This document shows positions 224-18,491 of a stretch of 27,395 nucleotides of DNA, in pieces; position 1 is the first letter of the stretch; every line of letters starts with the position of its first letter. The notes below the pieces were generated by a model. The model saw nothing but the letters and a program-made list of their open reading frames with translations. It searched no databases and was not told where the DNA came from. The stretch spans positions 1 through 27,395 of the forward strand of contig CAYHED010000001.1 in assembly GCA_964355615.1 (NCBI GenBank), in the 5' to 3' direction. A program made the position numbers and the translations under genes. This DNA is from an uncultured bacterium. Lineage in GTDB: Bacteria > Chlamydiota > Chlamydiia > Chlamydiales > SM23-39.

Positions 224-1499
224 AGAGATCCTTCAGTGTGAAAACCAGTTGATCGAAGGGCACCTCTTTTTGCTCTCTCGTCTGGAGGTTTTTGAGCTGA
301 CCCTTTTGTTGGGAGAGCTCTTCGGTGCCGAGGATGACGCAGTAGGTAGCGCCGATTTTCGTCGCATTTTGGAGGGCTGTTTGCATTTTCTTCGCTTGGA
401 GTTCGATGTCGCAGGGAATTTTTGCATGCCGACAAGCGGTGGCGAGCAAAAAGCACTGCTCTCTCGCTTCGTCTCCGAGGGGGACGAAATAGACAAAGGG
501 AGTGATCGCTGGTGTCCAGGGGAGCCCTTGTGCGAGGAGTACGTGAATCACTCGCTCCAACCCAGTGGCCCACCCCGCAGCGGGAAGGTCGGGGCCTCCG
601 AAAGTGGAAATGAGTCCATCAAAACGGCCCCCTCCGCCAATGGTGTTTTGAGCGCCGAGGTGGCCCCCAACCACCTCAAAGACCGTCTTGTTGTAGTAGT
701 CCAAGCCTCTAACAAGCCGGTCATCGACCACGTAAGGGATCCCGATCTTTTCGAGCAGCGCGCGCACCTGGTCAAAGTGCTCTTTCGCTTCAGGAGTCAA
801 ATAGTCCAAAATGGAGGGAGCCCCTTTCAGAAGCTGTTTGTCTTTGGGGTCTTTTGAGTCGAGGATCCTCAGCGGATTTTTCTCAAAACGGACCTGACTA
901 TCGGCCGACAGCTCCGCAAACTGGGGACGTAAAAAGTCCATCAGCGCCGTTCGAAAAGCCAAACGGGAAGCGGGATCGCCCACCGTATTGAGGTGCACTG
1001 TCAAATCTCTAATGCCCAGCCGCTGGTAAAAGGTGTAGAGGAGGTCGATCACCTCGGCATCTTGCTCGGGCCCCGCGACGCCAATGGCCTCGATCCCAAA
1101 CTGGTGGTGCTGTCGGTACCGTCCCGACTGAGGGCGCTCATAGCGAAACATTGGCCCGATATAGAAAAACTTATGAGTGGAGCGAGCAGAACCGAGTTTG
1201 TGTTCCAAAAAGGAACGCATCACAGAGGAGGTTCCTTCCGGTCTCAGGCACATCGGCCGGTCTCCTTTGTCGGTGAAAGTGAACATCTCCTTGGTCACGA
1301 TGTCGGAGGTTTCTCCCACCCCGCGGTTAAAGAGCTCAGCCCTTTCGTAGATGGGCGTCCGGATTTCACCGTAGCCGTAATCGACGGCGATCTGGCGGGC
1401 CACGGCTTCGACATACTGCCAAAGCGAAGAGAGGCGCCAGGTTTCGTCCGTGCCGTAGGGCAAGACGTCAAAAGTTCCTTTAGGGGCATTCAAGTCCAT
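216..1499 (-). CDS. hisS: Histidine--tRNA ligase
   Basis: 427 aa with class II HisRS motifs: APKGTFD, LRPEGT, FRYERPQSGRYRQHHQFGIE, RGLDYY, GGGRFDGL, GLER, and a C-terminal anticodon-binding domain. Confidence 0.98.
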   Translation of the reverse strand: MDLNAPKGTFDVLPYGTDETWRLSSLWQYVEAVARQIAVDYGYGEIRTPIYERAELFNRGVGETSDIVTKEMFTFTDKGDRPMCLRPEGTSSVMRSFLEHKLGSARSTHKFFYIGPMFRYERPQSGRYRQHHQFGIEAIGVAGPEQDAEVIDLLYTFYQRLGIRDLTVHLNTVGDPASRLAFRTALMDFLRPQFAELSADSQVRFEKNPLRILDSKDPKDKQLLKGAPSILDYLTPEAKEHFDQVRALLEKIGIPYVVDDRLVRGLDYYNKTVFEVVGGHLGAQNTIGGGGRFDGLISTFGGPDLPAAGWATGLERVIHVLLAQGLPWTPAITPFVYFVPLGDEAREQCFLLATACRHAKIPCDIELQAKKMQTALQNATKIGATYCVILGTEELSQQKGQLKNLQTREQKEVPFDQLVFTLKDLYV

Positions 1500-1511
1500 A
1501 TAACCAAAGGA

Positions 1512-2075
1512 CTATACCAAAAGGGGGAGCAGAGAGTCAATCTGGAGTATCCAGTGATAGAGGGTACTGTTGATGGGATTGTGGGTGTGCTCGAAGTGCA
1601 GTTTCGACACTAGCTCCATGAAGGGGAAGGGGAGCCACTTTTCTCCCACATACTCGCTCAAGTAGTAGCCGAGGGTATGTTGCTGCCCCTCCGGATAGGA
1701 TTGGATCTTCCCTAAAAAAGGGCTCAAGGCAGGGGCATTCTGTTGATCGTCGAGCAGTTTGCGCCAGATATCGGCCATCCGGTGCAGAAACAGGGTGTCT
1801 TGGCTCTTATTTTCCTTCTTAAGGGTCTCCAACTCACCCCTCAGCAGCAACAGGTGAATGCGGCTGCTTGAGGGGATTTTTCTCTGCAACGGGATCTCGA
1901 ACAGCTGAAATAATTTCCGCAAGAGAAACAAAACGTAGAGCAAAAGGCTGGGCTTTTGCTTGTCGGGGTCTTCGGGCCCTCCCCCAAAAGACCCTCTCCG
2001 GTCTTGCTGGAGTTCTTCGACCCGGTATCGGTCATAGGGGTCTCTCGGGCCAACAGGGGGGGTGTACGATTCCAT
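1512..2075 (-). CDS. Hypothetical protein, probably conserved in environmental chlamydiae
   Basis: 187-aa ORF with host-like composition, co-oriented with hisS and ending 12 nt before its start. No domain recognised. Confidence 0.7.
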   Translation of the reverse strand: MESYTPPVGPRDPYDRYRVEELQQDRRGSFGGGPEDPDKQKPSLLLYVLFLLRKLFQLFEIPLQRKIPSSSRIHLLLLRGELETLKKENKSQDTLFLHRMADIWRKLLDDQQNAPALSPFLGKIQSYPEGQQHTLGYYLSEYVGEKWLPFPFMELVSKLHFEHTHNPINSTLYHWILQIDSLLPLLV

Positions 2076-2143
2076 AACCGCATCTTAAGAGACAGCGCAT
2101 TTTTTATTTATCTTTTTTCTATTTTACAGGCATAAGAAGATCA

Positions 2144-4267
2144 ATGGAAGTAGTTTGCTCAAAACAACAGAACCTCATCCAAAAAATAAAATCCTGGCTG
2201 GTGAAATTGTCCATACGATTTGGCAGCCAAGACGCATCTATTCAGCGGCTACTTGGAAATGTCTATCTATTTGATAAATTGACCAGTGAACAAAAAATAT
2301 TAGTCACCAAATCTATTCAACCGATTTATTACGAAAGTGGCGAGGTCATTTTTAAACAAAATGCGGAAGGGGATAACTTTTATCTCATTAAAAGTGGGGT
2401 CGTTAGTATATGTTTTTTCCCTCCGGAAGGAAACGCCGAAATTGTTCTCGCCCGCCTTGAAGCTGGAGATTTTTTTGGAGAACAAGCTCTTTTAGGGAGT
2501 CTCCCAGAAAAAAGAAATGCCAGTGCAAAAACTCTCACTAAAACAACCCTTTACGCCATCTCTCATTCCGTGTACCAAAAAATTTTAAATGCCAATGTTG
2601 CGGAGATATTAAAAAAAATCGGGGAGCGGGAACTTTTAGAGAATCTTGATAAAAATCTAGAGGCCTTTGGCCTTTTAAAAAACGACTTAGGAGAAGTGCT
2701 AAACTATTCAGACGGCCAAGTTATTTTTAAAGCTCGAGAGATTGCTGATCGATCCTATTTTATCCTTTCAGGAGAGGTGGTGATCGAGTTCCCGGGACAA
2801 GATGCTTCGGCACATAGGACAGAGCTAGGCGCGGGAGAATTATTTGGAGAGTTGGGAGTTTTGGAGCAAATTCCACGTGCAGGCACAGCGAGAGCAAGGG
2901 GAAGTCTCCGATTGCTCTCCTTTAAAGGAGATGCATTTCGCAAGCTTTATAAAGAATCTTCCGAGTTACAACGGTTTGTTCGTGAGCTTAAAGACGTTTA
3001 TCCTCTTTTGAATCAAGGAACAGTTAGGTTGTATCACAGTAAGTTTCTTAATTTAAAATCCATTAATGCCAATTATCATTTAGGGGACAATCGCCTTGTT
3101 ACAACATCAAAAGTGATTGGAATGCCCATTTTCGCCATGTCGCATAATGAATTAGGCGCTGCTGAAACTGTACATTTTGCTCGTGGCGCGGATATTCGAC
3201 GAAGATTGATGATTCTCGGGTATAAAATCCTTGGGGTTTCCTGTTTTGGCGAGTGGGATGAGCTAGGTGAAGTTTGTGGCTTGATTTTGCAACAAAAAAA
3301 GATCAGTGACGAACAGATTGAGTCCTTCAAAAAAACGGGCAAGTTAAATCTCTCGAAATTCAAGATTCTTCCTTCGGAACAAAGAAACGAAACCATCTGT
3401 TTCTGTATGAAGGTATCTAAAGGAACCATCTATGATGCGATGTCTCAAGGTGTGAATAATCTAAGTGACATGATAAAGAAAACCGGGGCCGGAAGTGTAT
3501 GCGGCACTTGTCAGCCTAGAATTGTCGAGCTTTTGGGAATGCAAGCTTGGACTGCTGTTCGATTCATTGAAAAAGTACCCCTCACTTCAAATATTTGTTC
3601 TTTTAGGTTCCTCCCAACCGACCTTGCGCAGTATAGATATCAGCCCGGGCAGCATATTGTTATTCAAGCGATGATCAGTGGTCAATTTGTGAGTAGGAGC
3701 TATACACTGACTTCAGTGCCAGATCGAGATCATTTTATCGAAATTACTGTGAAGAGGGAGTCTCAGGGAGCTTTTTCAAATTGGCTTTTTGATCAGGCAA
3801 ATGAAAGTTCGCTGATTCGCATTTCCCAGCCACGAGGAGATTTTGTTTTAACACCAGAGCCAGATGTTCCGATGGTTTGTTTTGTGGGAGGGATTGGAGT
3901 GACTCCTGCTCTGGCATTTGCCAGATATTTGGTAGCCCATTCCAAGGAATCCCGTTTGCATATTGACTATTCTTGTAAAACGGATAAGGATTTCATTCTC
4001 ACGGAGGAATGGAAATCGATGACAGCAGCGCAGAAAAATATTACCATCCAACTGAGAGCCACAGCAGACAATCATCGACTGAGTGAGGATGCTATAGATC
4101 ATGTCTGCGGACAGTTGAAAGGGTGTAAGTTTTATATCTGTGGTCCTAAGGACTTTGAGCAATTTGTTGTTAATTATTTAAAAAAATGTCAGATATCTAC
4201 AGATAGGATCAGGGTAGAAGAGTTTATACACGCCGGAAGTCCGGTCAGCAGAACAATTGAAATTTAA
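2144..4267 (+). CDS. Multidomain reductase: two cNMP-binding domains, NirB/rubredoxin-reductase C-terminal-like segment, BFD-like [2Fe-2S] domain, FNR-type FAD/NAD(P)-binding reductase
   Basis: cNMP cassettes FFGEQALLGSLPEKRNA and LFGELGVLEQIPRAG; BFD signature ICFCMKV...GAGSVCGTCQP; FNR motifs PGQH, RSYTLTS, GAFSNWL, GGIGVTP, FYICGP, EEF. Confidence 0.88.
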   Translation: MEVVCSKQQNLIQKIKSWLVKLSIRFGSQDASIQRLLGNVYLFDKLTSEQKILVTKSIQPIYYESGEVIFKQNAEGDNFYLIKSGVVSICFFPPEGNAEIVLARLEAGDFFGEQALLGSLPEKRNASAKTLTKTTLYAISHSVYQKILNANVAEILKKIGERELLENLDKNLEAFGLLKNDLGEVLNYSDGQVIFKAREIADRSYFILSGEVVIEFPGQDASAHRTELGAGELFGELGVLEQIPRAGTARARGSLRLLSFKGDAFRKLYKESSELQRFVRELKDVYPLLNQGTVRLYHSKFLNLKSINANYHLGDNRLVTTSKVIGMPIFAMSHNELGAAETVHFARGADIRRRLMILGYKILGVSCFGEWDELGEVCGLILQQKKISDEQIESFKKTGKLNLSKFKILPSEQRNETICFCMKVSKGTIYDAMSQGVNNLSDMIKKTGAGSVCGTCQPRIVELLGMQAWTAVRFIEKVPLTSNICSFRFLPTDLAQYRYQPGQHIVIQAMISGQFVSRSYTLTSVPDRDHFIEITVKRESQGAFSNWLFDQANESSLIRISQPRGDFVLTPEPDVPMVCFVGGIGVTPALAFARYLVAHSKESRLHIDYSCKTDKDFILTEEWKSMTAAQKNITIQLRATADNHRLSEDAIDHVCGQLKGCKFYICGPKDFEQFVVNYLKKCQISTDRIRVEEFIHAGSPVSRTIEI

Positions 4268-4272
4268 AAGAT

Positions 4273-5370
4273 ATGGGAAATGGCAAATACGGTTTTTTGA
4301 TTCCGTCTCTTGTTCCGATTTTCATTATAATGGCATTTGTCACAAATCGTCCCGCATTATTTCTGTATATTATTTCGTTTGCTTTTCTGTTTTCTATTGT
4401 TCTTGATTGTCTCGTTCCTCGTGATAAGCTGTATTGTTATGATGAAGTCATTGCAACTCCTGAAAATGATGGGAGGCTATCTTCATGGATTTATCAACTC
4501 CTCTCTGGGAGTTTCCTAATATTACACCTCATTGCTTTGATTTTAGGAATGTATATTGCGAGCTATGAATATCCTTTGAGTCCTTGGATTTTTTATCTAC
4601 TTCCGTTTGGCTTTGAGGGTTCAGTAGTGCTGACAGTATGTCATGAATATTTCCATAAAGAGAGTTTGATTGAAAAAAATATCGCTAGATTTTTTGGGAG
4701 CCTGGAGTTTTGGAGTGTACATGAATATGAACATCTATTCTATCACCATCATCCCGATATTTCTTGTACGCCGGATGATTTATCTCATGCAAGAATCAAT
4801 CAATCTGTTTATTCATATGTTTATCATGCAATTATTCATAACTATGTGTATGCATGGGAGAAGCAAAAAGAGCTTTGTAGTCTGTCGGGAGTGCCATTTT
4901 TCAATATTTTAAAAAACCCTTTGTTAAAATGGTTGTCTGTGTCAGCAATAATTATTGCAATTATTTATGTTTTTTTTGGGTATAATGGCGTTCTGTTTTT
5001 TTTAGCGCAAGCCGCCCTATCAATGTTCATATTTATAGCAAGTGCTTATAATCAGCATTACGGACTCACGCGCCGTTTAAAAGCAGATGGGACGTACGAA
5101 GAATTCACGTTCATGAATGTTTGGGCATTCAACCATTTTATCTCTAGTAAGCAAGCATTCAACGCAACGCACCATGCACATCACCATCTCTTTCAGCTAT
5201 GTCGTTATCCTCACCTAAAAGCTGTTTCAAAAGGGCCTCTTTATCCTTTTGGATTGTCGATGACGTTTCTTCTCTGCCTCATTCCTGGTCTTTGGTATAG
5301 GATAGTGAATCCCCGAGTGAAAGAGATCTATCGATTGCGGGACGAATATGAGAGTAAAGGACAATTATAA
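4273..5370 (+). CDS. AlkB/XylM-family integral-membrane diiron hydroxylase/desaturase
   Basis: Several N-terminal hydrophobic helices. His boxes HEYFHK, EHLFYHH, NQHYGL and HHAHHH line up with AlkB HELxHK, EHxxGHH, NYxEHYG and RHxDHH. The C-terminal YPFG...LIPGLWYRIVNPRV is AlkB-like. Substrate unknown. Confidence 0.85.
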   Translation: MGNGKYGFLIPSLVPIFIIMAFVTNRPALFLYIISFAFLFSIVLDCLVPRDKLYCYDEVIATPENDGRLSSWIYQLLSGSFLILHLIALILGMYIASYEYPLSPWIFYLLPFGFEGSVVLTVCHEYFHKESLIEKNIARFFGSLEFWSVHEYEHLFYHHHPDISCTPDDLSHARINQSVYSYVYHAIIHNYVYAWEKQKELCSLSGVPFFNILKNPLLKWLSVSAIIIAIIYVFFGYNGVLFFLAQAALSMFIFIASAYNQHYGLTRRLKADGTYEEFTFMNVWAFNHFISSKQAFNATHHAHHHLFQLCRYPHLKAVSKGPLYPFGLSMTFLLCLIPGLWYRIVNPRVKEIYRLRDEYESKGQL

Positions 5371-6812
5371 TGTCAGCTAAAGTTGCGGTTATAGGTGCAG
5401 GTTGGTGTGGAATAGGAGTTCTGCGGACTTTATTAGAAAAGGGGCACCAAGTCGATTTATATGAAAAGAATGACGATGTCGGAGGAACGTGGCATCCGAG
5501 TAATTGTTACGCGGACTTACGGCTGCATGACTTAGCAAGACAGGTGGCTTATTTTGATTATTCTTTGCCTGATCACATTGACATTACTGAGCGAATTCCT
5601 TCTGAGGTGATTTTTCTTTACCTGCAGAATTATTGCAAGGCAAAGAAACTATATGAACATATGATTTTTAACTCTCGTGTATTAAAAATAAACTATGATT
5701 CGAAGCGCAATAAAAGCAAGATCTATATCCAGAAGGGGGATGGTCAAGTAATTGAACGAGAGTATGATTACATCGTCTACACAAATGGGTATAGCTGCCG
5801 TAACATTCCTAAACTCTCCGGGGCTGATCAGTTCTCCGGGGAAATTGTTCATTCTTTTGATGTTTCCTCGGCCCAATTGAGCTCCTATGTTCGACAAAAT
5901 AAAAAAATTACAATCCTTGGCGCGAGCAAAACTGCGACTGATTTTGCGCTGTCTTTACACAAATATGGCTATCAATTTTCTTGGCTTTCAAGAGCGCCTT
6001 ATTGGTTTATACGCTTGGACCCACTACGTCAATTCTTGAAGGATAAAAAATCGGGCAGATTCCCAAATCTTTGGTATAAGATGGGGGTGACGCTCAGTTT
6101 TTTTGCAGCTCAAATCATTCCCGTTCCTTCTATAGTGATGTGTTTTTTTAGGTTTTTTAATCTCATTCATACTTATGGAGAGAAACATTTTGATTTTAGA
6201 AAGTTTCATCTTGGGTATATTGATGAAAACCAAATGCGTGATTTAAAAAGACTCTATTCTGAATTTGGTGTTTTAGGAGATATTTCGTTGCTACAAGAGA
6301 AAGGGATCTGTCTGAAAAGCGGTAAGTTCATTGAGAGCGATGTGATTATTTGCTGTACAGGGTCTGGGGCGAAGAATCCGGATGCAGATGTCGAATTTCA
6401 AGTGGATGGACAACGCTTCTGCACTAGCGAGGTCAAGCAGGTTTATAATAGTAAAGTAATTCCCCAGCTGCCAAATTTGATCTTCACTGCGTACCAAAGT
6501 TTTGCTTTAGGGACTATTAATGGGCTGATTCAAGGAAATTGGATAGCAAAATACATAGAACTCCATCCTAGCCAGGACTACTTAGAAAAATACGCTATTA
6601 CTTTTGATCATTCCTTTTTCCTTCATCCTGTGCTTTTTGATTCATCTGACACCTTGTTTCATAAATCACATGCGCTTGCGAGTCCGTATTTTAAAAGCAA
6701 TGAGTTGTCTAAATGGTCCTATTACAAGTGGATTTTGAAGCAGTACTTTGCCGTCCACCCTTCCCTTCCCCTGGACTTTCATTTACCTGACCGCTCGTAT
6801 AAAATGGATTGA
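5370..6812 (+). CDS. Flavin-containing monooxygenase (FMO/BVMO-like)
   Basis: GAGWCG FAD Rossmann motif, DVGGTW, FSGEIVHS (FxGxxxH fingerprint), second dinucleotide motif ILGASKTA, DVIICCTG. Start overlaps the upstream stop (TAATG). Confidence 0.88.
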   Translation: MSAKVAVIGAGWCGIGVLRTLLEKGHQVDLYEKNDDVGGTWHPSNCYADLRLHDLARQVAYFDYSLPDHIDITERIPSEVIFLYLQNYCKAKKLYEHMIFNSRVLKINYDSKRNKSKIYIQKGDGQVIEREYDYIVYTNGYSCRNIPKLSGADQFSGEIVHSFDVSSAQLSSYVRQNKKITILGASKTATDFALSLHKYGYQFSWLSRAPYWFIRLDPLRQFLKDKKSGRFPNLWYKMGVTLSFFAAQIIPVPSIVMCFFRFFNLIHTYGEKHFDFRKFHLGYIDENQMRDLKRLYSEFGVLGDISLLQEKGICLKSGKFIESDVIICCTGSGAKNPDADVEFQVDGQRFCTSEVKQVYNSKVIPQLPNLIFTAYQSFALGTINGLIQGNWIAKYIELHPSQDYLEKYAITFDHSFFLHPVLFDSSDTLFHKSHALASPYFKSNELSKWSYYKWILKQYFAVHPSLPLDFHLPDRSYKMD

Positions 6813-6813
6813 T

Positions 6814-8568
6814 ATGGATATTTCTGTTGAGGCATTGCGCGATTGTTTCTTTTTTTCGGGTCTTAACGACAATGATCTGTTACAAGTTTTTGGCAAATTA
6901 CAAAGAGTGGATTTGTCTGAAAATGAGTATTTATTTAAAGAGCGCGACCAAGGAGACTCATTGTATGTACTCATCAAAGGGAAATTGGCGGCGGCGACAC
7001 AACACAAAAGTGTAGAGAAGGTGATAGGATTTATAAGGCCAGGAGAGGTCGTCGGCGAATTAAATATATTCTCAAATGCGCCCAGAAGCGCGTCGGTAAA
7101 AGCGATCCACCCATCCATCGTTTTGCGCCTGAGTCATGAGGATTTCCAATCGCTATGCTACAAAAATCCGAAAATTTTGTGGGAAGTCTCTCAGTTAATC
7201 GCGAGAAGATCCCAATCCAATATGGAGATTCTTCGTGAGGGGAAAACGAGCCAATCTCAACTGATAGCGATTGTCTCGGTAGGTCAGCAAATGGATATAC
7301 AAAAACTGATGTCCGACTTGGCCGGTAACAGCAATGAAACGATGAATATCAGTTTCATTGATTATAGCAGCCTGAAAGCGGATCGCCATTTAATTCATAG
7401 TGGTCGTACGATTATTTACGGTATGGATTATGCTGAATTACATAAAAACAGCGAGGTCTTACAGCTCTCTGATAAAGTAGTTTTCGCTATCAATGCGGAG
7501 CATGATAACTATGATTCCTTAAAGAAAATATGGGATGAGTGTGTTGAAAGACCCACAGCACATATGGAAAGGGAGTTAATGCTTTTGCAGACTGCAGATA
7601 AACCTTTCTATCTCAACACGCAAAAATACTTCGGGTTAGCAAATTTCTCGAAATGGTATCACGTTGCAGTTCAGTCGCCGAAAACGGTTCAGCGCTTCCT
7701 GAGATTGCTGAGTGGGAATGCTATTGGAGTCGTCATCGGAGGCGGAGGCGCGAGAGGTTGGGCTGCCGCTGGTGCAATCAAAGCTTTGCTCGATCACAAT
7801 ATTGCCATAGATTATATCGGGGGCTCGAGCATAGGTGCTGTAGTGGGCTGTATGTACGCTCTGTCTGAGAATTATGAGCAATTTATGGGGCTTGGAAAGA
7901 CCATGGGCAATCCAGTTAAATTACATGAGTTAACTTGGCCGCTCGTTTCGATTTTTAGCGGAGCAGCCCCGACGGAGTGGACTCAGGGAATTTGTGGAGA
8001 TGTTATGATTTCTGACTTCAGTGTGCCTTACTTTGCCATGTCAACCAATCTATCCACTATGAGTGAACACATTTGGGATAGAGGATTTTTATGGCAGGCG
8101 CTAAGGGCCACTGGCTCAGCCCCCATGCTTGTGCCTCCGCTTACCTATAATAACCAGCTCCATGTAGATGGGGGTGTGCTCAATAATTTTCCTGTAGATG
8201 TGATGCATGCTAAGTTGGAAAACCGAGGGTTCGTTATTGGAATCGATATTACCAGATCCTCTCTGGATGTAAAAGCATACGACTTCCCCCCGACCATTAA
8301 GTTTTGGAAGGCCTTACAAATGAAAATAAAGGGCGATGCCTATATTGATATCGTGGAAACCATGGATCGAACGATGATGGCCACCTCTATGGAAAAAACA
8401 GTCAGGAACGGCAAGAGATGTGATTTGCTCATTAGGCCCAAGTTGGATGAGTTTGGGTTGCTCGATTTCGCTAAGAAAGATGAGATCCTGGAAAGAGGGT
8501 ACAAGGAAGCCGATGAGCAGTTAAGTAAGTTCTTCGGGTTGGGCAAACGGGATGGCCGGTCTGGCTGA
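6814..8568 (+). CDS. cNMP-binding domain fused to patatin-like phospholipase (NTE/RssA-like)
   Basis: Start set at ATG 6814, 1 nt after the FMO stop and in frame with the listed 6748 ORF. cNMP cassette VGELNIFSNAPRSA; patatin motifs GGGGARG, GSSIG (GxSxG) and DGGVLNNFP. Confidence 0.92.
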   Translation: MDISVEALRDCFFFSGLNDNDLLQVFGKLQRVDLSENEYLFKERDQGDSLYVLIKGKLAAATQHKSVEKVIGFIRPGEVVGELNIFSNAPRSASVKAIHPSIVLRLSHEDFQSLCYKNPKILWEVSQLIARRSQSNMEILREGKTSQSQLIAIVSVGQQMDIQKLMSDLAGNSNETMNISFIDYSSLKADRHLIHSGRTIIYGMDYAELHKNSEVLQLSDKVVFAINAEHDNYDSLKKIWDECVERPTAHMERELMLLQTADKPFYLNTQKYFGLANFSKWYHVAVQSPKTVQRFLRLLSGNAIGVVIGGGGARGWAAAGAIKALLDHNIAIDYIGGSSIGAVVGCMYALSENYEQFMGLGKTMGNPVKLHELTWPLVSIFSGAAPTEWTQGICGDVMISDFSVPYFAMSTNLSTMSEHIWDRGFLWQALRATGSAPMLVPPLTYNNQLHVDGGVLNNFPVDVMHAKLENRGFVIGIDITRSSLDVKAYDFPPTIKFWKALQMKIKGDAYIDIVETMDRTMMATSMEKTVRNGKRCDLLIRPKLDEFGLLDFAKKDEILERGYKEADEQLSKFFGLGKRDGRSG

Positions 8569-8571
8569 ACG

Positions 8572-8598
8572 CAAACTCGGCCTTTTCAGCCGAGTTTG
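8572..8598. terminator. Hairpin between convergent genes, candidate bidirectional terminator
   Basis: CAAACTCGGC-cttttca-GCCGAGTTTG, a perfect 10-bp stem 3 nt after the patatin stop. Confidence 0.55.
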
Positions 8599-8627
8599 GG
8601 ATAAGAGAAATGGCGCAAAATGACGCC

Positions 8628-8662
8628 CATTCGGTCAATTTGAGACTCAAATTGACGGAATG
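8628..8662. repeat. 35-bp near-perfect palindrome (REP-like)
   Basis: CATTC-g-GTCAATTTGAG-a-CTCAAATTGAC-g-GAATG: one mismatched pair around a single central base. Confidence 0.7.
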
Positions 8663-8693
8663 AAGAGCAATTTGCTAAAGACAGGTTCCAAGG

Positions 8694-9344
8694 TTAGGTG
8701 TATTCATACTCTCTTCTGAGGTAGGCGGCCCGACGGCCTTTCGCCGAAATCGATTTAGGAAAATCGATTCGTTCTATATTTGAACGGACCTCGTAGCCGA
8801 CAAAAGGGGCGCTCGCTTCCTGAATGGCGACTGTTGCTAATGAAAAGTCTTCATCTGAAATCGCCCCATCATAGACAAACCGCAGCTCTAAATACTTCTT
8901 TTTAGGATCTGAGTCTACTGTAACGATGCGCAAAGAAGGGGACACCTTTCCGAGTAGCGCTTCTTGCATATCAAGAAGTAATACAGAGCTATGGAGCGTC
9001 TCTGGAGTCTTCAAAAGAAAGGCCCTGTTTTCTTTGGGATAATTTGGCAAGTTCGGTTCTTTTCTTAAATATGCAAATTTTCCCCAAAGGGGAATCTGTT
9101 TTGGGGCATCCACTCGAAGAATATATTCCTCATTGAAATGATTTGGGTAACTATCTGTTTCCGTCCTAGCGAGGTTTGCAATTTCTCTTACGCGCTCCGT
9201 GATTTCCCCGTCATAGAAAAAATAGATGAGTGCTTTTTTATTTTTATCGTCCGTATCCACAATGACGGCGCGTAGTTCCGGCGTCACCGCATTGAGCAGG
9301 GCATTTTGAATGCTCCATAGCAGGTAATATATGGAAGGGTCCAT
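8694..9344 (-). CDS. Putative toxin immunity protein made of two tandem ~100-aa repeats (MafI2-like)
   Basis: The pattern ALLxxVxPxLRxVxVD...FxYDGxI...RxDxPKxI..G..AYLRxE occurs twice. The start lies 3 nt after the stop of the Ntox50 toxin frame. Confidence 0.65.
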   Translation of the reverse strand: MDPSIYYLLWSIQNALLNAVTPELRAVIVDTDDKNKKALIYFFYDGEITERVREIANLARTETDSYPNHFNEEYILRVDAPKQIPLWGKFAYLRKEPNLPNYPKENRAFLLKTPETLHSSVLLLDMQEALLGKVSPSLRIVTVDSDPKKKYLELRFVYDGAISDEDFSLATVAIQEASAPFVGYEVRSNIERIDFPKSISAKGRRAAYLRREYEYT

Positions 9345-9347
9345 TGA

Positions 9348-9900
9348 TCAACTCTTTGGTGCTGTAGGTACTATGTGAACTCCGTCTTTAGCATAATGGA
9401 TCTTTCCCCAGGTTGTGAGTGTTTTTTTCTTAGTCGTGAGATCCACTGCATATCCTATTATTTCTCCAAAATCGATCACTTCTTTGTAGCCGGCAACTCC
9501 AGGAGCGCTTGTTCCTTCCGTGAATCCCGTTCCTGCAAACTGGTTGACCAATTTCTGAGGATTGGGATGTGTGAGGATACTGGGATATTCTTGCTTCTTG
9601 AGTTTTTCTAAATAATGGCGGTGGCCGAGGAGGTGCTTGCCCTGCTTGGCTTCGAGGGTAAAAGAAAGGTGCGTTGCGTACTGTACTCCGTACTGTCTCT
9701 CTGAAGATGTATTCAATATCGTCGATGCGACCATCTATCTCCCCATCGCCACACCCCCAATGGCAAAGAATAGTCATCCCGCCATAACTCACGGGTTTTG
9801 GGGTCGCACAAGAGTAGCCCTCATCTTCCTCATCCTCATAGTCCCAGTCAGCAAAAAGAGACAATGAACAAAGGAGCATCAACACTAGGCGATAACACAT
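9348..9900 (-). pseudogene. Secreted polymorphic toxin with C-terminal Ntox50-type domain, interrupted by a frameshift
   Basis: The ORF from 9900 begins with a signal peptide (MCYRLVLMLLCSLSLFA-D) and an acidic stretch. The toxin motifs KQGKH..GH..Y, AGTG, KEVIDFGEIIG and GKIHYAKDGVHIVP lie in another frame (9348-9734). Removing one base from the A4 run at 9660-9663 joins them into a 183-aa ORF. Confidence 0.7.
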
Positions 9901-9926
9901 AGTTCCCCCACCAAAGAGTTCCAGAC

Positions 9927-9955
9927 ACTATGAAGAAAAAAATTTACTGCGTCAA
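9927..9955 (-). promoter_or_regulatory. Candidate sigma66/sigma70 promoter for the toxin gene
   Basis: TTGACG-17 nt-CATAGT on the minus strand, ending 26 nt before the ATG at 9900. Confidence 0.45.
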
Positions 9956-9982
9956 GAAATTTGTTCGGGTGGGAAATAAGGA

Positions 9983-10012
9983 TTGACAGAAGGGGGGGGA
10001 GGTCTTTACCCT
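9983..10012 (+). promoter_or_regulatory. Candidate sigma66 promoter for uhpC, with a G8 tract in the spacer
   Basis: TTGACA (9983-9988), 18-nt spacer containing G8 (9992-9999), TACCCT (10007-10012). Confidence 0.4.
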
Positions 10013-10052
10013 TTTGTTGTTTTGGCCTTCAATTTATTCCCGAGGAGTGCGC

Positions 10053-11486: not shown

Positions 11487-12629
11487 CTATGAGGTCTTCA
11501 ACTCTTCAGGTTGTTTGGGCATAGTCCGCTCTAAAACAATCCACCAAAGTTGAACTCGGTTGTCTTTCAAATGGTGTTCGCTTCGATAATTAGCTTGCCA
11601 ACCTGAATTACCAAAATGCCAATGAATCCAAGCGTCGCAATAAATATCTATCCATTTGTGAATATGATGGGGATCGAGCAAAAGAAGGACTGGTATCGAT
11701 AAAGCCTTCTTGAAGCTCCATTTAATTTGTGCAGCGCCAAAGTGCTTTCTGTCTATTACGGAAGTTAATCGATAATCTTCTGTTTTATCATACCTTCTTA
11801 GTTCTGCAAAAAAAGGAGTGGCATTTTGTGTAATTCCTTCATCTCCTGTTGGATAACAGCCGGAATGATACTTATCTAAAAGATAGGACAACAACTGTTC
11901 TTTCACTTTAACCTGCTTGACTGTTTGGTGTAAGCAAGAAATAAAAATTCTATGAGAACGAGAGTCTGGTTTCATGAGCTTGGCTGCCAACTCAAACATG
12001 TCCGCATATATTTTATTCTGAGCATTCCTGTCTGATCTATCTTTTGCAGGGACATAATGTTCAATTGTATCCATAAATGTAACAGCGTCAAATTGACCGT
12101 AGAGTTGCTCTCTGAGTTTTGAGTTTTCGGCAATAGATTTCCAATTGGTGCAGATGACTTCTATTCCATGCTTTTTTTTCGCTGCAGCTGCTTGTTCTGA
12201 AGTTATATTCACACCTACAACATAAATCCCTTTAGATCGCGCATAATTCAACCAGTCCCCGTAACCACATCCTATGTCTATTAAAGAATCTCCTGGAGAT
12301 AAATTGAGCTCTTTTAACATAAACTCCCATTTATCAATCTGAGCTTGATGGCGGTTTTTCGATAAGTCTCCATCGTAAAAATTGAATCCCAGATCTCTGC
12401 CATCTTCACTTAAGGACGAAAGAAATACATTTCCAAACTGATAGCCTCTTTGAATTCTGATTTCTGGGTTGAGAATGCTCCAACCGAATCCGTAATAGGT
12501 TAAATCATCCAACAACTGGAATCCAAACCAAATAAAAAAACAAAAAGGGGATAGAACAATCCCTAAATATATACTTAAAAAAATAAAAGAAATGTTAATT
12601 GCTGCATTTCTATCAATTCTGAGCTTCAC
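11487..12629 (-). CDS. Class I SAM-dependent methyltransferase resembling cyclopropane-fatty-acyl-phospholipid synthase, with an N-terminal membrane segment
   Basis: LIDIGCGYG motif I, GVNITSEQ, FDAVTFMDTIEHY and KYHSGCYP parallel Cfa motifs. GTG start behind a GGAGG SD; hydrophobic N-terminus; AT-richer than the flanking core genes. Confidence 0.75.
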   Translation of the reverse strand: MKLRIDRNAAINISFIFLSIYLGIVLSPFCFFIWFGFQLLDDLTYYGFGWSILNPEIRIQRGYQFGNVFLSSLSEDGRDLGFNFYDGDLSKNRHQAQIDKWEFMLKELNLSPGDSLIDIGCGYGDWLNYARSKGIYVVGVNITSEQAAAAKKKHGIEVICTNWKSIAENSKLREQLYGQFDAVTFMDTIEHYVPAKDRSDRNAQNKIYADMFELAAKLMKPDSRSHRIFISCLHQTVKQVKVKEQLLSYLLDKYHSGCYPTGDEGITQNATPFFAELRRYDKTEDYRLTSVIDRKHFGAAQIKWSFKKALSIPVLLLLDPHHIHKWIDIYCDAWIHWHFGNSGWQANYRSEHHLKDNRVQLWWIVLERTMPKQPEELKTS

Positions 12630-16300: not shown

Positions 16301-17066
16301 AACCCCCTTCGTCAATCCTCCCGCTGTCAAACAAAAATCGACCCAACTCCAGTTATTGCAACGGGAAAAAGAGCTCCTCGGATTTTATCTCACTGGCCAT
16401 CCAATGGATAGTTATAAAAAAATCCTCGGCAGGCTCTCTTGCGTCCCTCTCCACGAAGTCGCCCTCTTTCCCGATGGAGCTATTTTTCGAGCCGCCTTTG
16501 TCGTCGAGACGGTGCAGGTCAAAGTCTCCGCCAAGAGCCAGAAGAAATTTGCCATTTTGACCATCGGCGATGGAGTGGAGCGGTTCGAGCTCCCCGTTTG
16601 GCCCGAACTCTACGAGGAAAAGGGGGCCCTCCTTCAGGACAACCGGCTCCTCTACGCCATTTTGCAACTCGAGCGGAAAGGAGAGGGGATGCAGCTCTCT
16701 TCTCGGTATCTCGAAGATTTAGCCGCCATCGACGAGGCCAAGATCAAAGCTTGCGAAGAGTTGTACGACAAACTCAAATCCCAAGTGCGCTCGGAGCCCA
16801 AGTGGAAAACCGCTAAGCAAGATAAGGCGCCCGTGGAGAAGAAAGAAGATGTGCAAAACGTAAAAATTCAGGTCGACGCGGACAAAATGCGCCTGAGCGA
16901 AGTCCTCGCTTATAAAGAGCTCTTCCGCGCTCATCCCGGTAAGTCCACTGTAGAGATGACATTCTCCTCGCAAGGGAGAAGACTCGGCGTCCTCTTCATC
17001 GACTCTCAGTGGGGAGTTAAAGTGGATGAGATCTTTTTGACCCAGTTGAAGAAACTGGGTTCTTGA
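13398..17066 (+). CDS. dnaE: DNA polymerase III alpha subunit
   Basis: 1222 aa: PHP domain (LHVHSQFSILD, ALAITD), GRGSAAGS, catalytic PDIDVD, KIDFLGL, GVFQLES, YGFNKSHA, OB-fold C-terminus. Confidence 0.99.
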   Translation: MTWIPLHVHSQFSILDSSASVEDLAETAKRYGIPALAITDTGNLYGAVEFYKACKAAGVKPIMGCQIWVAPGARTEKKRIPGVPNGFPIVLLAKNLKGYRNLCKLSSIGFLEGFYYQPRIDKELLAAHSEGLICLSGGMEGPIAHSILTGGAVLEEIEWYRGVFGADFYFEIQRQPLSENEVVSENWLAQKMRDAVSFQEKVNGKLIELSRKLGVKLVATNDIHYIGQEDWEAHEVLLNVQSGEPCEIWERDSQGNAKAKVPNPKREAMATRELYFKSPEQMKALFADVPEAIEETERVAALCNCEIDFKTKHYPVFVPPALEGQPWTKEEREKAAGQFLHDLCTQAIPTRYTAAHLAAVQKVYPGKDPLQVVQDRFTYEFGLLTSKGMSDYMLIVYDFIAWAKRKGIPMGPGRGSAAGSIIAYLTGITDIEPLRFHLFFERFINPERVSYPDIDVDICMDRRQEVIDYVVAKYGKEKVAQIITFGTMKAKMAIRDVGRVLNVPLSKVNQIAALVPEDPTMTLERAFQIDPELTRLMETDEEARRVLEMAKKAEGSIRNTSTHAAGLIISANPITDHVPVCTAKDSAMVVTQYAMKPVESVGMLKIDFLGLKTLTCIQKCADAVARNTGKRINWANLPLDDQPTFNLLNHGKTLGVFQLESGGMQDLAKQLHIDTFEEIIAVGALYRPGPMDMIPSFIARKHGREPIDIDHPLMKDILSETHGVMVYQEQVMQIASALAGYTLGEGDVLRRAMGKKDKEEMSRQREKFTHGCAAKGIESETARLIFDKVEKFASYGFNKSHAAAYAYLSYATAYFKANYPGEWMAALMTCDRDDTTKVAKFIGEAKALHLPVLSPDINQAGAEFWATSAGIRFAMAGIKGVGEGVVEEILKERAKGLFESLYNFIQRMDKTKIGKKQIELLIDAGAFDFTLWSRDAMRESVEAMYDEAFRDQKEASLGVLNLFALIEETPFVNPPAVKQKSTQLQLLQREKELLGFYLTGHPMDSYKKILGRLSCVPLHEVALFPDGAIFRAAFVVETVQVKVSAKSQKKFAILTIGDGVERFELPVWPELYEEKGALLQDNRLLYAILQLERKGEGMQLSSRYLEDLAAIDEAKIKACEELYDKLKSQVRSEPKWKTAKQDKAPVEKKEDVQNVKIQVDADKMRLSEVLAYKELFRAHPGKSTVEMTFSSQGRRLGVLFIDSQWGVKVDEIFLTQLKKLGS

Positions 17067-18491
17067 GCCACTTTTGAATCGTGCCATTGGAGATCAACAA
17101 GTCATTGTAGTCGATGATGGCATTGATTGATTCAAAAATGGACGATCCCCCAATAAAAAGGGTCTGATTTTTCCCTTGCAATTCAAGTAGTTTCCAAGGA
17201 GCGCCCTCCAGAATGCCATTCGCATTGAAGTGGGGAAAGTAGAGTGACTCATTCCCTGTAGTGGGGCCCTTGGCGTGAATGACAAAGCGTCCTTCGGGGA
17301 GCGCTTGCTGCAGCGCGTGCAGGCACGCTTCTTCCCAAGCCGCTGTGGAGGAGTGAATCGGAAGATCGTAACAATAGGAGACAAATAACTTGGAAGGGTT
17401 GCTGTTTTCTGGGAAAAAATGTTTGGAGTGTCTGAGCGTCATCACGACAGTTGACTTGTGTGGTTGGAGCGCGGAAGGATAGGTGATGATCCCTTTTCGA
17501 GGAGAAGGCACCTCACACTCAATGAGGTAGCTCGCAAAACGAAAGCCTTCGTCTAGGTCTCTAAATAGTTCGTGTTCTTCGGGGGTGAAATCCAAGATGC
17601 CCTGTAGGGCGGTGGGGGGGCAGGCCACGACCAATAAATCATAATTTTCCTCCTGGTTATTGACCCGTACTTGGACTCCGTGCGACGTTCTTTGCACGCG
17701 AGTGACTTTGGAGGAGAGTTTGATGGAAGCCCGGATTTGCCCAGACAGAAGTCGAATCAGGGATTCAAAGCAGGTCGAGAGCAAGTAAGCGTTTGTTTTG
17801 GTCCCCCCCCTCGTTACTTTCCCCAAAATTTGTTGTTTGATCATGTGGATCGTATTTGGATTGCACCAGATCAGGCCATAAAAAGTAGGAATACTTTCAA
17901 GATAACCGTACCCCTGGGCTGTTTGGAACAACCTAAAAATAGGGATCAACATTTCGAGCTTATGGAGTTTTAAAAAGTCCAAAAAGGGGACAGAGAGCTG
18001 TTCTCTTCTTTGCAAATCCTTTATGGGGGGGGCATGAAATCCTTATAGGACCCGAGTATCTCCTTATGAACGCGGAGATATTTTTTGAGTTTGAAGAGGA
18101 GGGTGACCAGAAAGAAAATTTTGAGAATAGGGCCTGGGAGAAATTGACAGATTTTGGGGAGGTGGAGCCTGCTCTCTTCTAGCGCCCAATCTCCGAATTC
18201 CTTGAGCTCATTCTTGTGATGCATTTCTCGGCCTGGAACGGGACGTAGGTAAGGGTCCACGTGGCATCCCAGCTGTTCAAATAAGGAATAGACGTTCGGG
18301 TAGCTTGGAGCGAGGTAGCAGGCTCCCAGCTCATGTAAAAACCCATCCGGCCCCTGCACAGTCTGTATTTTGCCGCCGAGACGGTCCCTCTCTTCGTAGA
18401 TGGTGATATCCACCTCTTCCGAGCGAAGAAGATAAGCCATGTGGAGAGAGGCCAGCCCTCCCCCGATGAATGCGATCCGTTTCTTGGTCAT
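17017..18491 (-). pseudogene. FAD-dependent oxidoreductase (amine-oxidase fold, PUFA-isomerase-like) split by a frameshift in a C8 tract
   Basis: ORF 18021-18491 carries RIAFIGGG, YEERDRLGGK and HELGACY. ORF 17017-18015 carries the C-terminal YFPH...LQGKNQTLFIGGSSIFE. Adding one base to (or removing two from) the G8 run at 18025-18032 on the + strand fuses them; C9 gives 491 aa. Confidence 0.8.

Follow-up and report, generated by a model that had tools for sequence, protein, structure and literature searches.

The redox partners of AlkB, of cytochrome P450 enzymes (P450s) and of nitric oxide synthase (NOS) are usually seen as constitutive plumbing, the famous exception being the control of animal NOS by calmodulin. 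In the canonical AlkB/AlkG/AlkT system, an NAD(P)H-dependent flavoprotein reduces a small iron carrier, rubredoxin. XylA, the reductase of xylene monooxygenase, is of the type in which a [2Fe-2S] domain and an FNR module lie on a single chain and serve a membrane His-box or Rieske oxygenase. A further arrangement is that of the Sorangium cellulosum NOS (scNOS), which summaries trace to Agapie et al. (2009, PNAS 106:16221). Two such summaries describe scNOS as a catalytically self-sufficient NOS whose fused reductase domain, here called the BFD-FAD-NAD module, contains FAD and an iron-sulfur centre (PMC3701330; PMC4436077), and one of them states that the inputs stimulating scNOS are unknown (PMC4436077). 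Here we describe a relative of this module in a 27,395-nt contig (CAYHED010000001.1 of assembly GCA_964355615.1; hereafter the window) from an uncultured member of the Chlamydiales. The reductase gene, P0001, encodes two cyclic nucleotide monophosphate (cNMP)-binding domains, a domain like the C-terminal domain of NirB and ferredoxin reductases, a BFD-type [2Fe-2S] domain, an FNR-type FAD domain and an NAD(P) domain, in that order, and it is followed by the gene for an AlkB-family membrane hydroxylase, P0002. What is new is an scNOS-type ferredoxin-FNR fusion reductase with a cyclic-nucleotide sensor and an AlkB-family partner. On balance we favour the combined reading, in which P0001 would supply electrons to P0002 under the control of a cyclic nucleotide.

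The closest studied relative of P0001 is the reductase domain of scNOS. The Sorangium locus (L018) matches P0001 residues 350-694 at 31% identity (E 1e-45), and scNOS, like the similar SiliNOS of Silicibacter, shares a homologous reductase-C-like/BFD/FAD/NAD core, with the same Pfam order in L018. By contrast, scNOS is fused to a NOS oxygenase and a pair of EF-hands, whereas P0001 terminates after its NAD domain, with no NOS oxygenase fusion by Pfam, and stands alone with two cNMP domains and an AlkB-family partner. The resemblance to AlkB/AlkG/AlkT is that P0002 is an AlkB homologue with the nine His residues of that family, that an NAD(P)H flavoprotein reduces a small iron-sulfur or iron carrier, and that the middle domain of P0001 resembles the C-terminal domain of rubredoxin reductase. 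Unlike AlkB/AlkG/AlkT, however, the P0001 system is without rubredoxin (in an 88.9%-complete assembly) and has the BFD [2Fe-2S] domain as carrier; its flavin module is of the FNR type rather than the glutathione-reductase type (Pyr_redox_2) of AlkT; and everything, together with a cNMP sensor, is on one polypeptide. As in XylA and phthalate dioxygenase reductase, a [2Fe-2S] domain and an FNR module share one chain in P0001, and the FNR part weakly matches phthalate dioxygenase reductase (2pia) and BenC/AntC-type models. Unlike that of XylA, the cluster of P0001 is BFD-type (PF04324) rather than plant-type Fer2 (PF00111), and its place in the chain is after the two cNMP domains and the NirB-like domain and before the FNR module. 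The cassette of C-terminal-like domain and BFD domain is also found in NirB: the NCBIfam model TIGR02374 aligns P0001 residues 315-486 with NirB 311-482 (E 2e-14), at a score of 53 bits against a cut-off of 578, and some members of the P0001 family carry a fused NIR_SIR or molybdopterin domain, like the enzymes of nitrate/nitrite assimilation. P0001 itself differs from NirB in that the flavin domain is replaced by an FNR module; by Pfam, it has no match to Pyr_redox_2 (PF07992), to the sirohaem domain NIR_SIR (PF01077) or to plant-type Fer2.

Sensors attached to enzymes are known from other proteins. The calmodulin-regulated diflavin reductase of animal NOS is an electron-transfer protein with a second-messenger sensor, and cyclic nucleotide-binding (CNB) domains are fused to enzymes in the mycobacterial Pat acetyltransferase, to which P0001 has an NCBIfam match, and in the NTE-type cNMP-patatin proteins. 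PtdE of the ptd cluster is a different cNMP-domain iron-sulfur protein, listed as of unknown function (bioRxiv 10.1101/2023.11.21.568154). The link between a CNB tandem and a BFD-FNR reductase that P0001 shows is absent from all of these.

Every Pfam match of P0001 exceeds its curated gathering cut-off (Table 1), with cNMP_binding (PF00027) present twice (E 1.3e-36). A preliminary description of the locus, made from the DNA letters and their translations, had proposed the string cNMP-cNMP-NirB-like-BFD-FAD-NAD(P), and Pfam, NCBIfam and VIA-align agree with it in every element. The AlphaFold model of the full-length protein has a mean predicted local distance difference test (pLDDT) value of 81.8 and a predicted template modelling score (pTM) of 0.47. 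The top Foldseek matches of the N-terminal region are tandem CNB structures of the regulatory subunit of cyclic AMP (cAMP)-dependent protein kinase (PKA-R), and the tandem aligns as one unit with residues 32-275 of PKA RI-alpha. The fold of the FNR part resembles the modules of flavohaemoglobin and cytochrome b5 reductase (Foldseek; 4eh1, TM 0.77). In a separate model of residues 265-470, residues 416-468 superpose on Pseudomonas aeruginosa Bfd (6e6q) with a VIA-align Z of 8.7 and a root-mean-square deviation of 1.8 Å over 52 residues, and the same helical Bfd fold is matched by 6e6r (Foldseek, TMt 0.85).

The segment between the sensor and the BFD domain, which the preliminary description had likened to the C-terminal part of NirB and rubredoxin reductase, is real, as indicated by both the TIGR02374 alignment and structural superposition. 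In VIA-align, residues ~310-408 of the 265-470 model fit the C-terminal domain found in ferredoxin and rubredoxin reductases of the glutathione-reductase family; Z is 8.4 for BphA4 (1d7y), 7.4 for TodA (3ef6), 6.8 for putidaredoxin reductase (3lb8) and 6.1 for the rubredoxin reductases 3klj and 2v3b (Z 6.1-8.4); 3fg2 was also matched (Z 6-8.4). One family member has a Pfam Rubredoxin_C match (E 6.8e-7). A Foldseek search of the PDB with the model of residues 265-470 gave no match at E < 1e-3. Because that model has a mean pLDDT of 90 and there are a profile match to NirB and fold matches to the reductases, we take the middle region to be a folded domain; an unstructured linker, which we had also considered, is ruled out by pLDDT above 90 and the fold matches. 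An assembly chimera is likewise ruled out, since a genome of the same genus (G001) has the gene at 85-87% identity with the same neighbours.

All of the expected cofactor and ligand residues are conserved. We aligned 34 full-length homologues (29-55% identity to P0001) and, as a second set, 39 longer, fused members. Within the 34 homologues, the four cysteines of the CxC...CxxC motif (C419, C421, C453 and C456) are invariant, as they are in alignments A1, A2 and A3. In the FAD motif, R518 does not vary, and conservation is at least 90% at Y520 and T521. Of the residues G583, G585, P588 and C666 in the nucleotide motif GGxGxxP plus CGP, all are invariant except G585, which is conserved to at least 90%. 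The phosphate-binding cassettes of the sensor follow the same pattern, each with one position that is conserved to at least 90% and two that are invariant: R124 beside G112 and E113 in domain A, and E236 beside G235 and R245 in domain B. R124 aligns to the cassette arginine of PKG/PKA-like domains. The cofactor and cassette residues stay conserved in the 39 fused members too. All these motifs are intact in P0001, and their conservation across stand-alone and fused proteins indicates that all cofactor sites and both cyclic-nucleotide sites are under selection.

Table 1. Features of the window, with nucleotide positions counted from its first letter.
Feature	Position (nt)	Strand	Details
Reductase gene P0001	2144..4267	+	open frame, 707 aa; Pfam, NCBIfam and AlphaFold
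cNMP-binding domain A	2324..2593	+	residues 61-150, the best PF00027 stretch (Pfam); cassette G112, E113, R124
cNMP-binding domain B	2702..2956	+	residues ~187-271; PF00027; cassette G235, E236, R245
Middle domain	3011..3367	+	residues ~290-408; seven strands, two helices; reductase-C-terminal-like
BFD-like [2Fe-2S] domain	3392..3535	+	residues 417-464; PF04324, E 2e-10; C419, C421, C453, C456
FNR-type FAD domain (FAD_binding_6)	3563..3844	+	residues 474-567; PF00970, E 1e-12; R518-S-Y520-T521
NAD(P) domain (NAD_binding_1)	3887..4171	+	residues 582-676; PF00175, E 1.7e-9; G583, G585, P588, C666
AlkB-family membrane di-iron hydroxylase P0002, proposed acceptor	4273..5370	+	365 aa; PF00487; 5 nt downstream of P0001
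FMO-like flavin monooxygenase	5370..6812	+	480 aa; PF00743, PF07992; overlaps stop of AlkB-like gene
cNMP and patatin-like phospholipase, last operon gene	6814..8568	+	PF00027, E 8e-20; PF01734, E 7e-26
Low-GC insertion	2076..10013	.	36-46% GC against ~53% in the flanks; operon plus Ntox50 toxin with candidate immunity gene
Candidate immunity gene, follows Ntox50 ORF	8694-9344	-	216 aa; no family match
Ntox50 polymorphic-toxin open reading frame (ORF)	9348-9734	-	PF15542, E 3.5e-25; far end of the island
Amine-oxidase-like flavoprotein, split in two ORFs	17017-18015 and 18021-18491	-	NAD_binding_8/Amino_oxidase N-terminal part; Amino_oxidase C-terminal part

The proposed acceptor, P0002, matches AlkB structures over its full length (PDB 8sbb, E 6e-27; 8f6t, E 2.6e-25), and its nine metal-binding His residues (H124, H128, H154, H158, H159, H262, H301, H304 and H305) are invariant among 34 homologues. 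The pairing of such a gene with a P0001-like reductase recurs at no fewer than seven loci, in both gene orders, in two separate clades and with differing surrounding genes. On unrelated metagenomic contigs, reductases 43-55% identical to P0001 adjoin an AlkB-like gene 35-52% identical to P0002; the two genes are 18 nt apart in one case (L001), the AlkB-like gene comes first in another (L005), and a tandem array (L004:1702-9264) runs reductase, AlkB-like, AlkB-like, reductase, AlkB-like, with two reductases and three AlkB-like genes. Two more pairs were found with P0002 as the query, one from a gammaproteobacterial metagenome-assembled genome (MAG) with a patatin gene nearby (L099), and one on a large contig of a distant lineage, in which the genes overlap by 4 nt (L100). 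The same-genus genome G001 has the reductase, AlkB-like and FMO genes in identical order. For P0008/P0076 and P0016/P0074, the longest contigs are equal in length within each pair (14,014 and 16,169 bp), a sign that the two members may sit on one contig. In a maximum-likelihood tree of 60 core sequences, the close AlkB-adjacent reductases all fall in one clade (support 100/100), and the reductase of the L100 pair falls in a second. Among ~190 genomes sampled from the order, the AlkB-like subfamily was found only in the genome of the window (G000) and in G001, both of which carry a reductase of the AlkB clade. Downstream of the tandem array, we note Glyco_transf_90 and leucine-rich repeat (LRR) genes, a eukaryote-like repertoire.

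No rubredoxin had been seen in the window when it was first described, and this extends to the whole 1.46-Mb, 88.9%-complete assembly, in which a search with PF00301 found none and controls were positive. No P450 was found in the assembly either, and its only other NAD_binding_1 protein is on a 2-kb contig. From the gene pairing, the oxygenase fusions described below and the failure to find a rubredoxin, P0001 is most likely the electron donor of the AlkB-like enzyme. The preliminary description went further and called it the dedicated reductase of the adjacent oxygenase. The donor role is well supported, but "dedicated" is less secure, since two other proteins in the genome could share the donor: a second AlkB-like paralogue, which matches the subfamily profile at E 2e-78 and is cut off by the contig end (contig C37:10588-11172, minus strand; L113), and a 296-aa FA_desaturase-family protein (contig C63; L112: 5824-6714, minus strand) whose gene is convergent with one (4451-5560, plus strand) in which a cNMP domain is joined to an Rce1-like CAAX protease domain.

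To place P0001 in its family, we searched its middle part (residues 265-470) against 1.84 billion representatives. At E <= 1e-10 there were 264 clusters (50% identity), mostly matched at about residues 240-470 and behind a sensor-sized N-terminus. The full architecture accounts for ~45 clusters in a word-indexed search of 5.8 billion proteins, and both sensor and FNR were spanned in 13 of the best 80 loci when 185,579 species were represented by a single genome each. The earlier label of "unusual" therefore fits the fusion only in part: its architecture is rare, yet a few hundred clusters make up a coherent family. The open-access literature that we searched contained no description of the cNMP-bearing reductase, of its P450 or NOS fusions, or of cyclic-nucleotide control of an oxygenase electron donor; searches of the same literature for Chlamydiae with alkane monooxygenase, and for bacterial NOS domain architecture, gave nothing relevant.

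The terminal enzymes joined to the module are varied. A P450 is fused to it in 7 of the 39 long members (1250-1600 aa), and fusions to NOS oxygenase occur in Sericytochromatia, Terriglobia and Bradymonadia. These two kinds of fusion argue that the module serves as an electron donor for oxygenases. In P0149 it is covalently joined to an FA_desaturase-family domain, which also speaks for the pairing with P0002. Other members carry an N-terminal molybdopterin oxidoreductase (L012:124-4569, 1482 aa) or a C-terminal NIR_SIR sirohaem reductase (L014:7357-11529, 1391 aa), and may be cyclic-nucleotide-linked nitrate and nitrite or sulfite reductases; multihaem cytochromes are fused to or adjoin still others. 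Stand-alone copies also have oxygenase neighbours: in a genome of the window's own family (G015), a P450 gene begins 1 nt after the reductase gene, and around P0027 are genes for four P450s, a Rieske oxygenase and a sterol methyltransferase. Because fusions and neighbours differ between clades, we read the module as a portable electron donor that has different partners in different clades. The P450-fused members may represent an undescribed class of self-sufficient P450.

Several variants of the architecture stand out. The metagenomic proteins P0173, P0178, P0234, P0247 and P0261 (1250-1607 aa) have two cNMP domains, BFD, FAD and NAD domains and a C-terminal P450, and P0261 has a sulfotransferase at its N-terminus as well. 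A class of ~850 aa (L009:5192-9132, L022:7271-10516, L011:721-3495 and P0260) has an extra C-terminal ~190 aa without a Pfam match, and adjoins or is fused with multihaem c-type cytochromes. P0047, P0049 and P0050 (768-772 aa) have two cNMP domains and BFD with no FNR module, and carry PF10118 (Metal_hydrol) instead.

What the sensor would respond to can be approached from the genome and from the relatives. A profile search of the assembly found two class III cyclases and only three cNMP-binding proteins, namely P0001, the patatin lipase of its operon and the cNMP-CAAX-protease-like protein encoded beside the FA_desaturase gene. With the CAAX-protease fusion as the third, all of these receptors are tied to membrane or lipid enzymes. 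Among the relatives, the NOS proteins of a Sorangium sp. (L018:6786-10256) and of a Flavobacteriaceae MAG (L019:2387-5758) have an EF-hand pair (~residues 170-240) upstream of BFD-FNR, at the place of the cNMP tandem; other NOS fusions keep the cNMP tandem. It is mainly from this swap of EF-hands for cNMP domains at one position that we infer that the N-terminus may be an exchangeable second-messenger input with a regulatory role. For the stronger statement that a cyclic nucleotide gates the electron supply, which the conserved cassettes and the two cyclases also favour, we put the chances at about even. The scNOS summaries cited here do not mention the EF-hand pair (PMC3701330; PMC4436077).

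We propose the following path. Electrons from NAD(P)H would enter the soluble reductase P0001 at the FAD of the C-terminal FNR module and pass to the [2Fe-2S] cluster of the BFD domain, which would be a built-in one-electron carrier in the role that rubredoxin has for canonical AlkB. From the BFD domain they would reach the di-iron centre of P0002, and perhaps that of its paralogue too. The PKA-R-like tandem would bind cAMP or cyclic GMP (cGMP) and control the shuttling of the BFD domain between flavin and acceptor, by analogy with calmodulin control of the NOS reductase. The middle domain may be what is left of a C-terminal domain of a ferredoxin reductase, coupled to BFD in the manner of NirB; it is a probable hinge or docking platform.

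Several points weigh against this reading. P0001 and the other cNMP-bearing members are known here from sequences and models alone, and it is from these that we infer which cofactors are loaded, which way the electrons flow, what accepts them and whether the flow is gated. With a pTM of 0.47, the inter-domain geometry of P0001 is uncertain, and a gating mechanism is therefore unreadable from the model. The sequence does not separate cAMP from cGMP or from another ligand. A close homologue at L006 has no AlkB-like neighbour, and adjacency is consequently not universal; and with the assembly 88.9% complete, a rubredoxin gene could sit in the missing part. In P0149 the module is fused to an FA_desaturase-family domain, but this domain lies outside the AlkB subfamily, with no BLAST match to P0002 and a weak hidden Markov model match, and a BLAST search of P0002 against 150 representative matches found no AlkB-subfamily fusion. 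When the AlkB-like protein of alignment A4 and the BFD domain of A3 (residues 140-206) were predicted as a complex, the score was 0.11 against a mark of 0.32, and we counted it neither way.

Of the alternatives, one grants P0001 the role of electron donor and denies the tandem a gating function: the cNMP domains might instead serve dimerisation or localisation, or bind some other ligand, as do the cAMP-independent PKA-R of trypanosomes and the haem-binding CooA. CAP-family domains have been recruited for other ligands (textbook knowledge), PDB entries 6h4g, 6flo and 6hyq are among the fold matches, and the low-pTM model shows no readable gating geometry; these points speak for this alternative. 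Nonetheless, the Gly-Glu and Arg of the cassette, which contact the cyclic phosphate, are invariant or nearly so in both domains of ~34 stand-alone and 39 fused proteins, two nucleotide cyclases are retained in the genome, and the presence of EF-hands at the same position in NOS relatives fits a signal input; we consider a non-gating tandem unlikely, though it is the most serious of the competitors. Another possibility is that P0001 is a general or differently aimed reductase, serving other FA_desaturase-family proteins, the FMO-like protein or a respiratory component, and that its place beside an AlkB-like gene reflects co-transfer on an island. The second AlkB-like fragment (contig C37) and the other FA_desaturase gene (contig C63) would be possible clients, and count against an exclusive partnership; the module serves many partners across the family, and the L006 homologue has no AlkB-like gene beside it. 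Island co-transfer is, however, hard to square with at least seven paired loci that differ in surrounding genes, order and clade, or with an AlkB-like subfamily that, among the ~190 genomes sampled from the order, was found only in two, both with an AlkB-clade reductase. The FMO-like gene is not conserved beside the homologues, and FMOs use NADPH directly (textbook knowledge). We regard a general reductase as improbable.

Far less credible still is a role in iron or NO chemistry, whether that of a reductase that mobilises iron as Bfd does, of a ferric reductase or of a reductase that detoxifies NO in the manner of flavohaemoglobin. BFD domains classically serve bacterioferritin (PDB 4e6k), and the closest NCBIfam model for the FNR part is that of an NO-inducible flavohaemoprotein, at 121 bits and so well under its cut-off of 432. 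But Pfam finds no globin or haem domain in P0001, no bacterioferritin gene was seen in the window, and family partners, fused or adjoining, are overwhelmingly oxygenases and reductases.

If the preferred reading, an AlkB donor gated by a cyclic nucleotide, is true, bacteria would regulate oxygenase chemistry post-translationally, at the electron tap, through a built-in cAMP/cGMP receptor, and AlkB-type enzymes would have a rubredoxin-free partner on a single polypeptide. It would also offer a physiological input for the Sorangium-type NOS family, the stimuli of which are stated to be unknown (PMC4436077), and would tie cyclic-nucleotide signalling to lipid modification on an acquired island of an obligate intracellular chlamydia. 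The P450 fusions, possibly a new class of self-sufficient enzyme, are of interest for biocatalysis. A broader and more tentative idea is that second-messenger gating of electron supply is a general modular strategy of bacteria, in which an exchangeable N-terminal sensor (cNMP tandem or EF-hands) would control a reductase-C-like/BFD/FNR core, and the core would feed many terminal enzymes, from AlkB-type hydroxylases, P450s and NOS to sirohaem and molybdenum reductases and multihaem conduits. On this view, cAMP or cGMP, perhaps as a readout of the state of the host cell, might switch on lipid hydroxylation in this chlamydia, with the AlkB-like enzyme and the cNMP-patatin lipase of the operon acting together.

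The genes for the reductase, the AlkB-like enzyme, the FMO-like protein and the cNMP-patatin protein look like one operon. The patatin gene starts either at ATG 6814, 2 nt past the FMO stop, or at TTG 6748. A consensus scan of positions 1400-9400 for promoters and terminators found sites no commoner than in shuffled sequence, and for this reason the limits of the operon rest on gene spacing alone. The FMO-like gene keeps its place in the same-genus genome G001, and is not kept beside the more distant homologues.

The operon lies in a low-GC insertion between a hisS-hypothetical gene pair and a gene of the major facilitator superfamily (MFS). In four genomes of the same family, hisS, hypothetical, MFS, dnaE, bamD and lptE are contiguous, with nothing at the site of the operon. 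The best named relatives of the histidyl-tRNA synthetase (HisRS) of the window are Chlamydiales/Chlamydiota MAGs, at ~70% identity, and another part of the assembly has a gene for a Protochlamydia-type outer membrane protein; together these indicate that the host is an environmental chlamydia with a small genome. Full-length homologues of P0001 were found in 4 of 41 lineage relatives, and a middle-domain match in 2 of 150 genomes of the order. Since the reductase/AlkB-like pair is so sparse within the lineage, it was most likely acquired horizontally. Genes for ankyrin, LRR and SET-domain proteins occur on the contigs of the closest homologues, a hint of exchange between bacteria living inside protists.

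Three lineage-specific insertions break the hisS-hypothetical-MFS-dnaE-bamD-lptE block (2076-10013, 11487-12629 and 17017-18491), and no gene in them has a match at the syntenic loci of the four same-family genomes. Their cargo is, in turn, the reductase operon with the toxin pair, a CMAS-like methyltransferase and the amine-oxidase-like gene. The two ORFs into which this last gene is split could reflect a frameshift, a pseudogene or a phase-variable gene.

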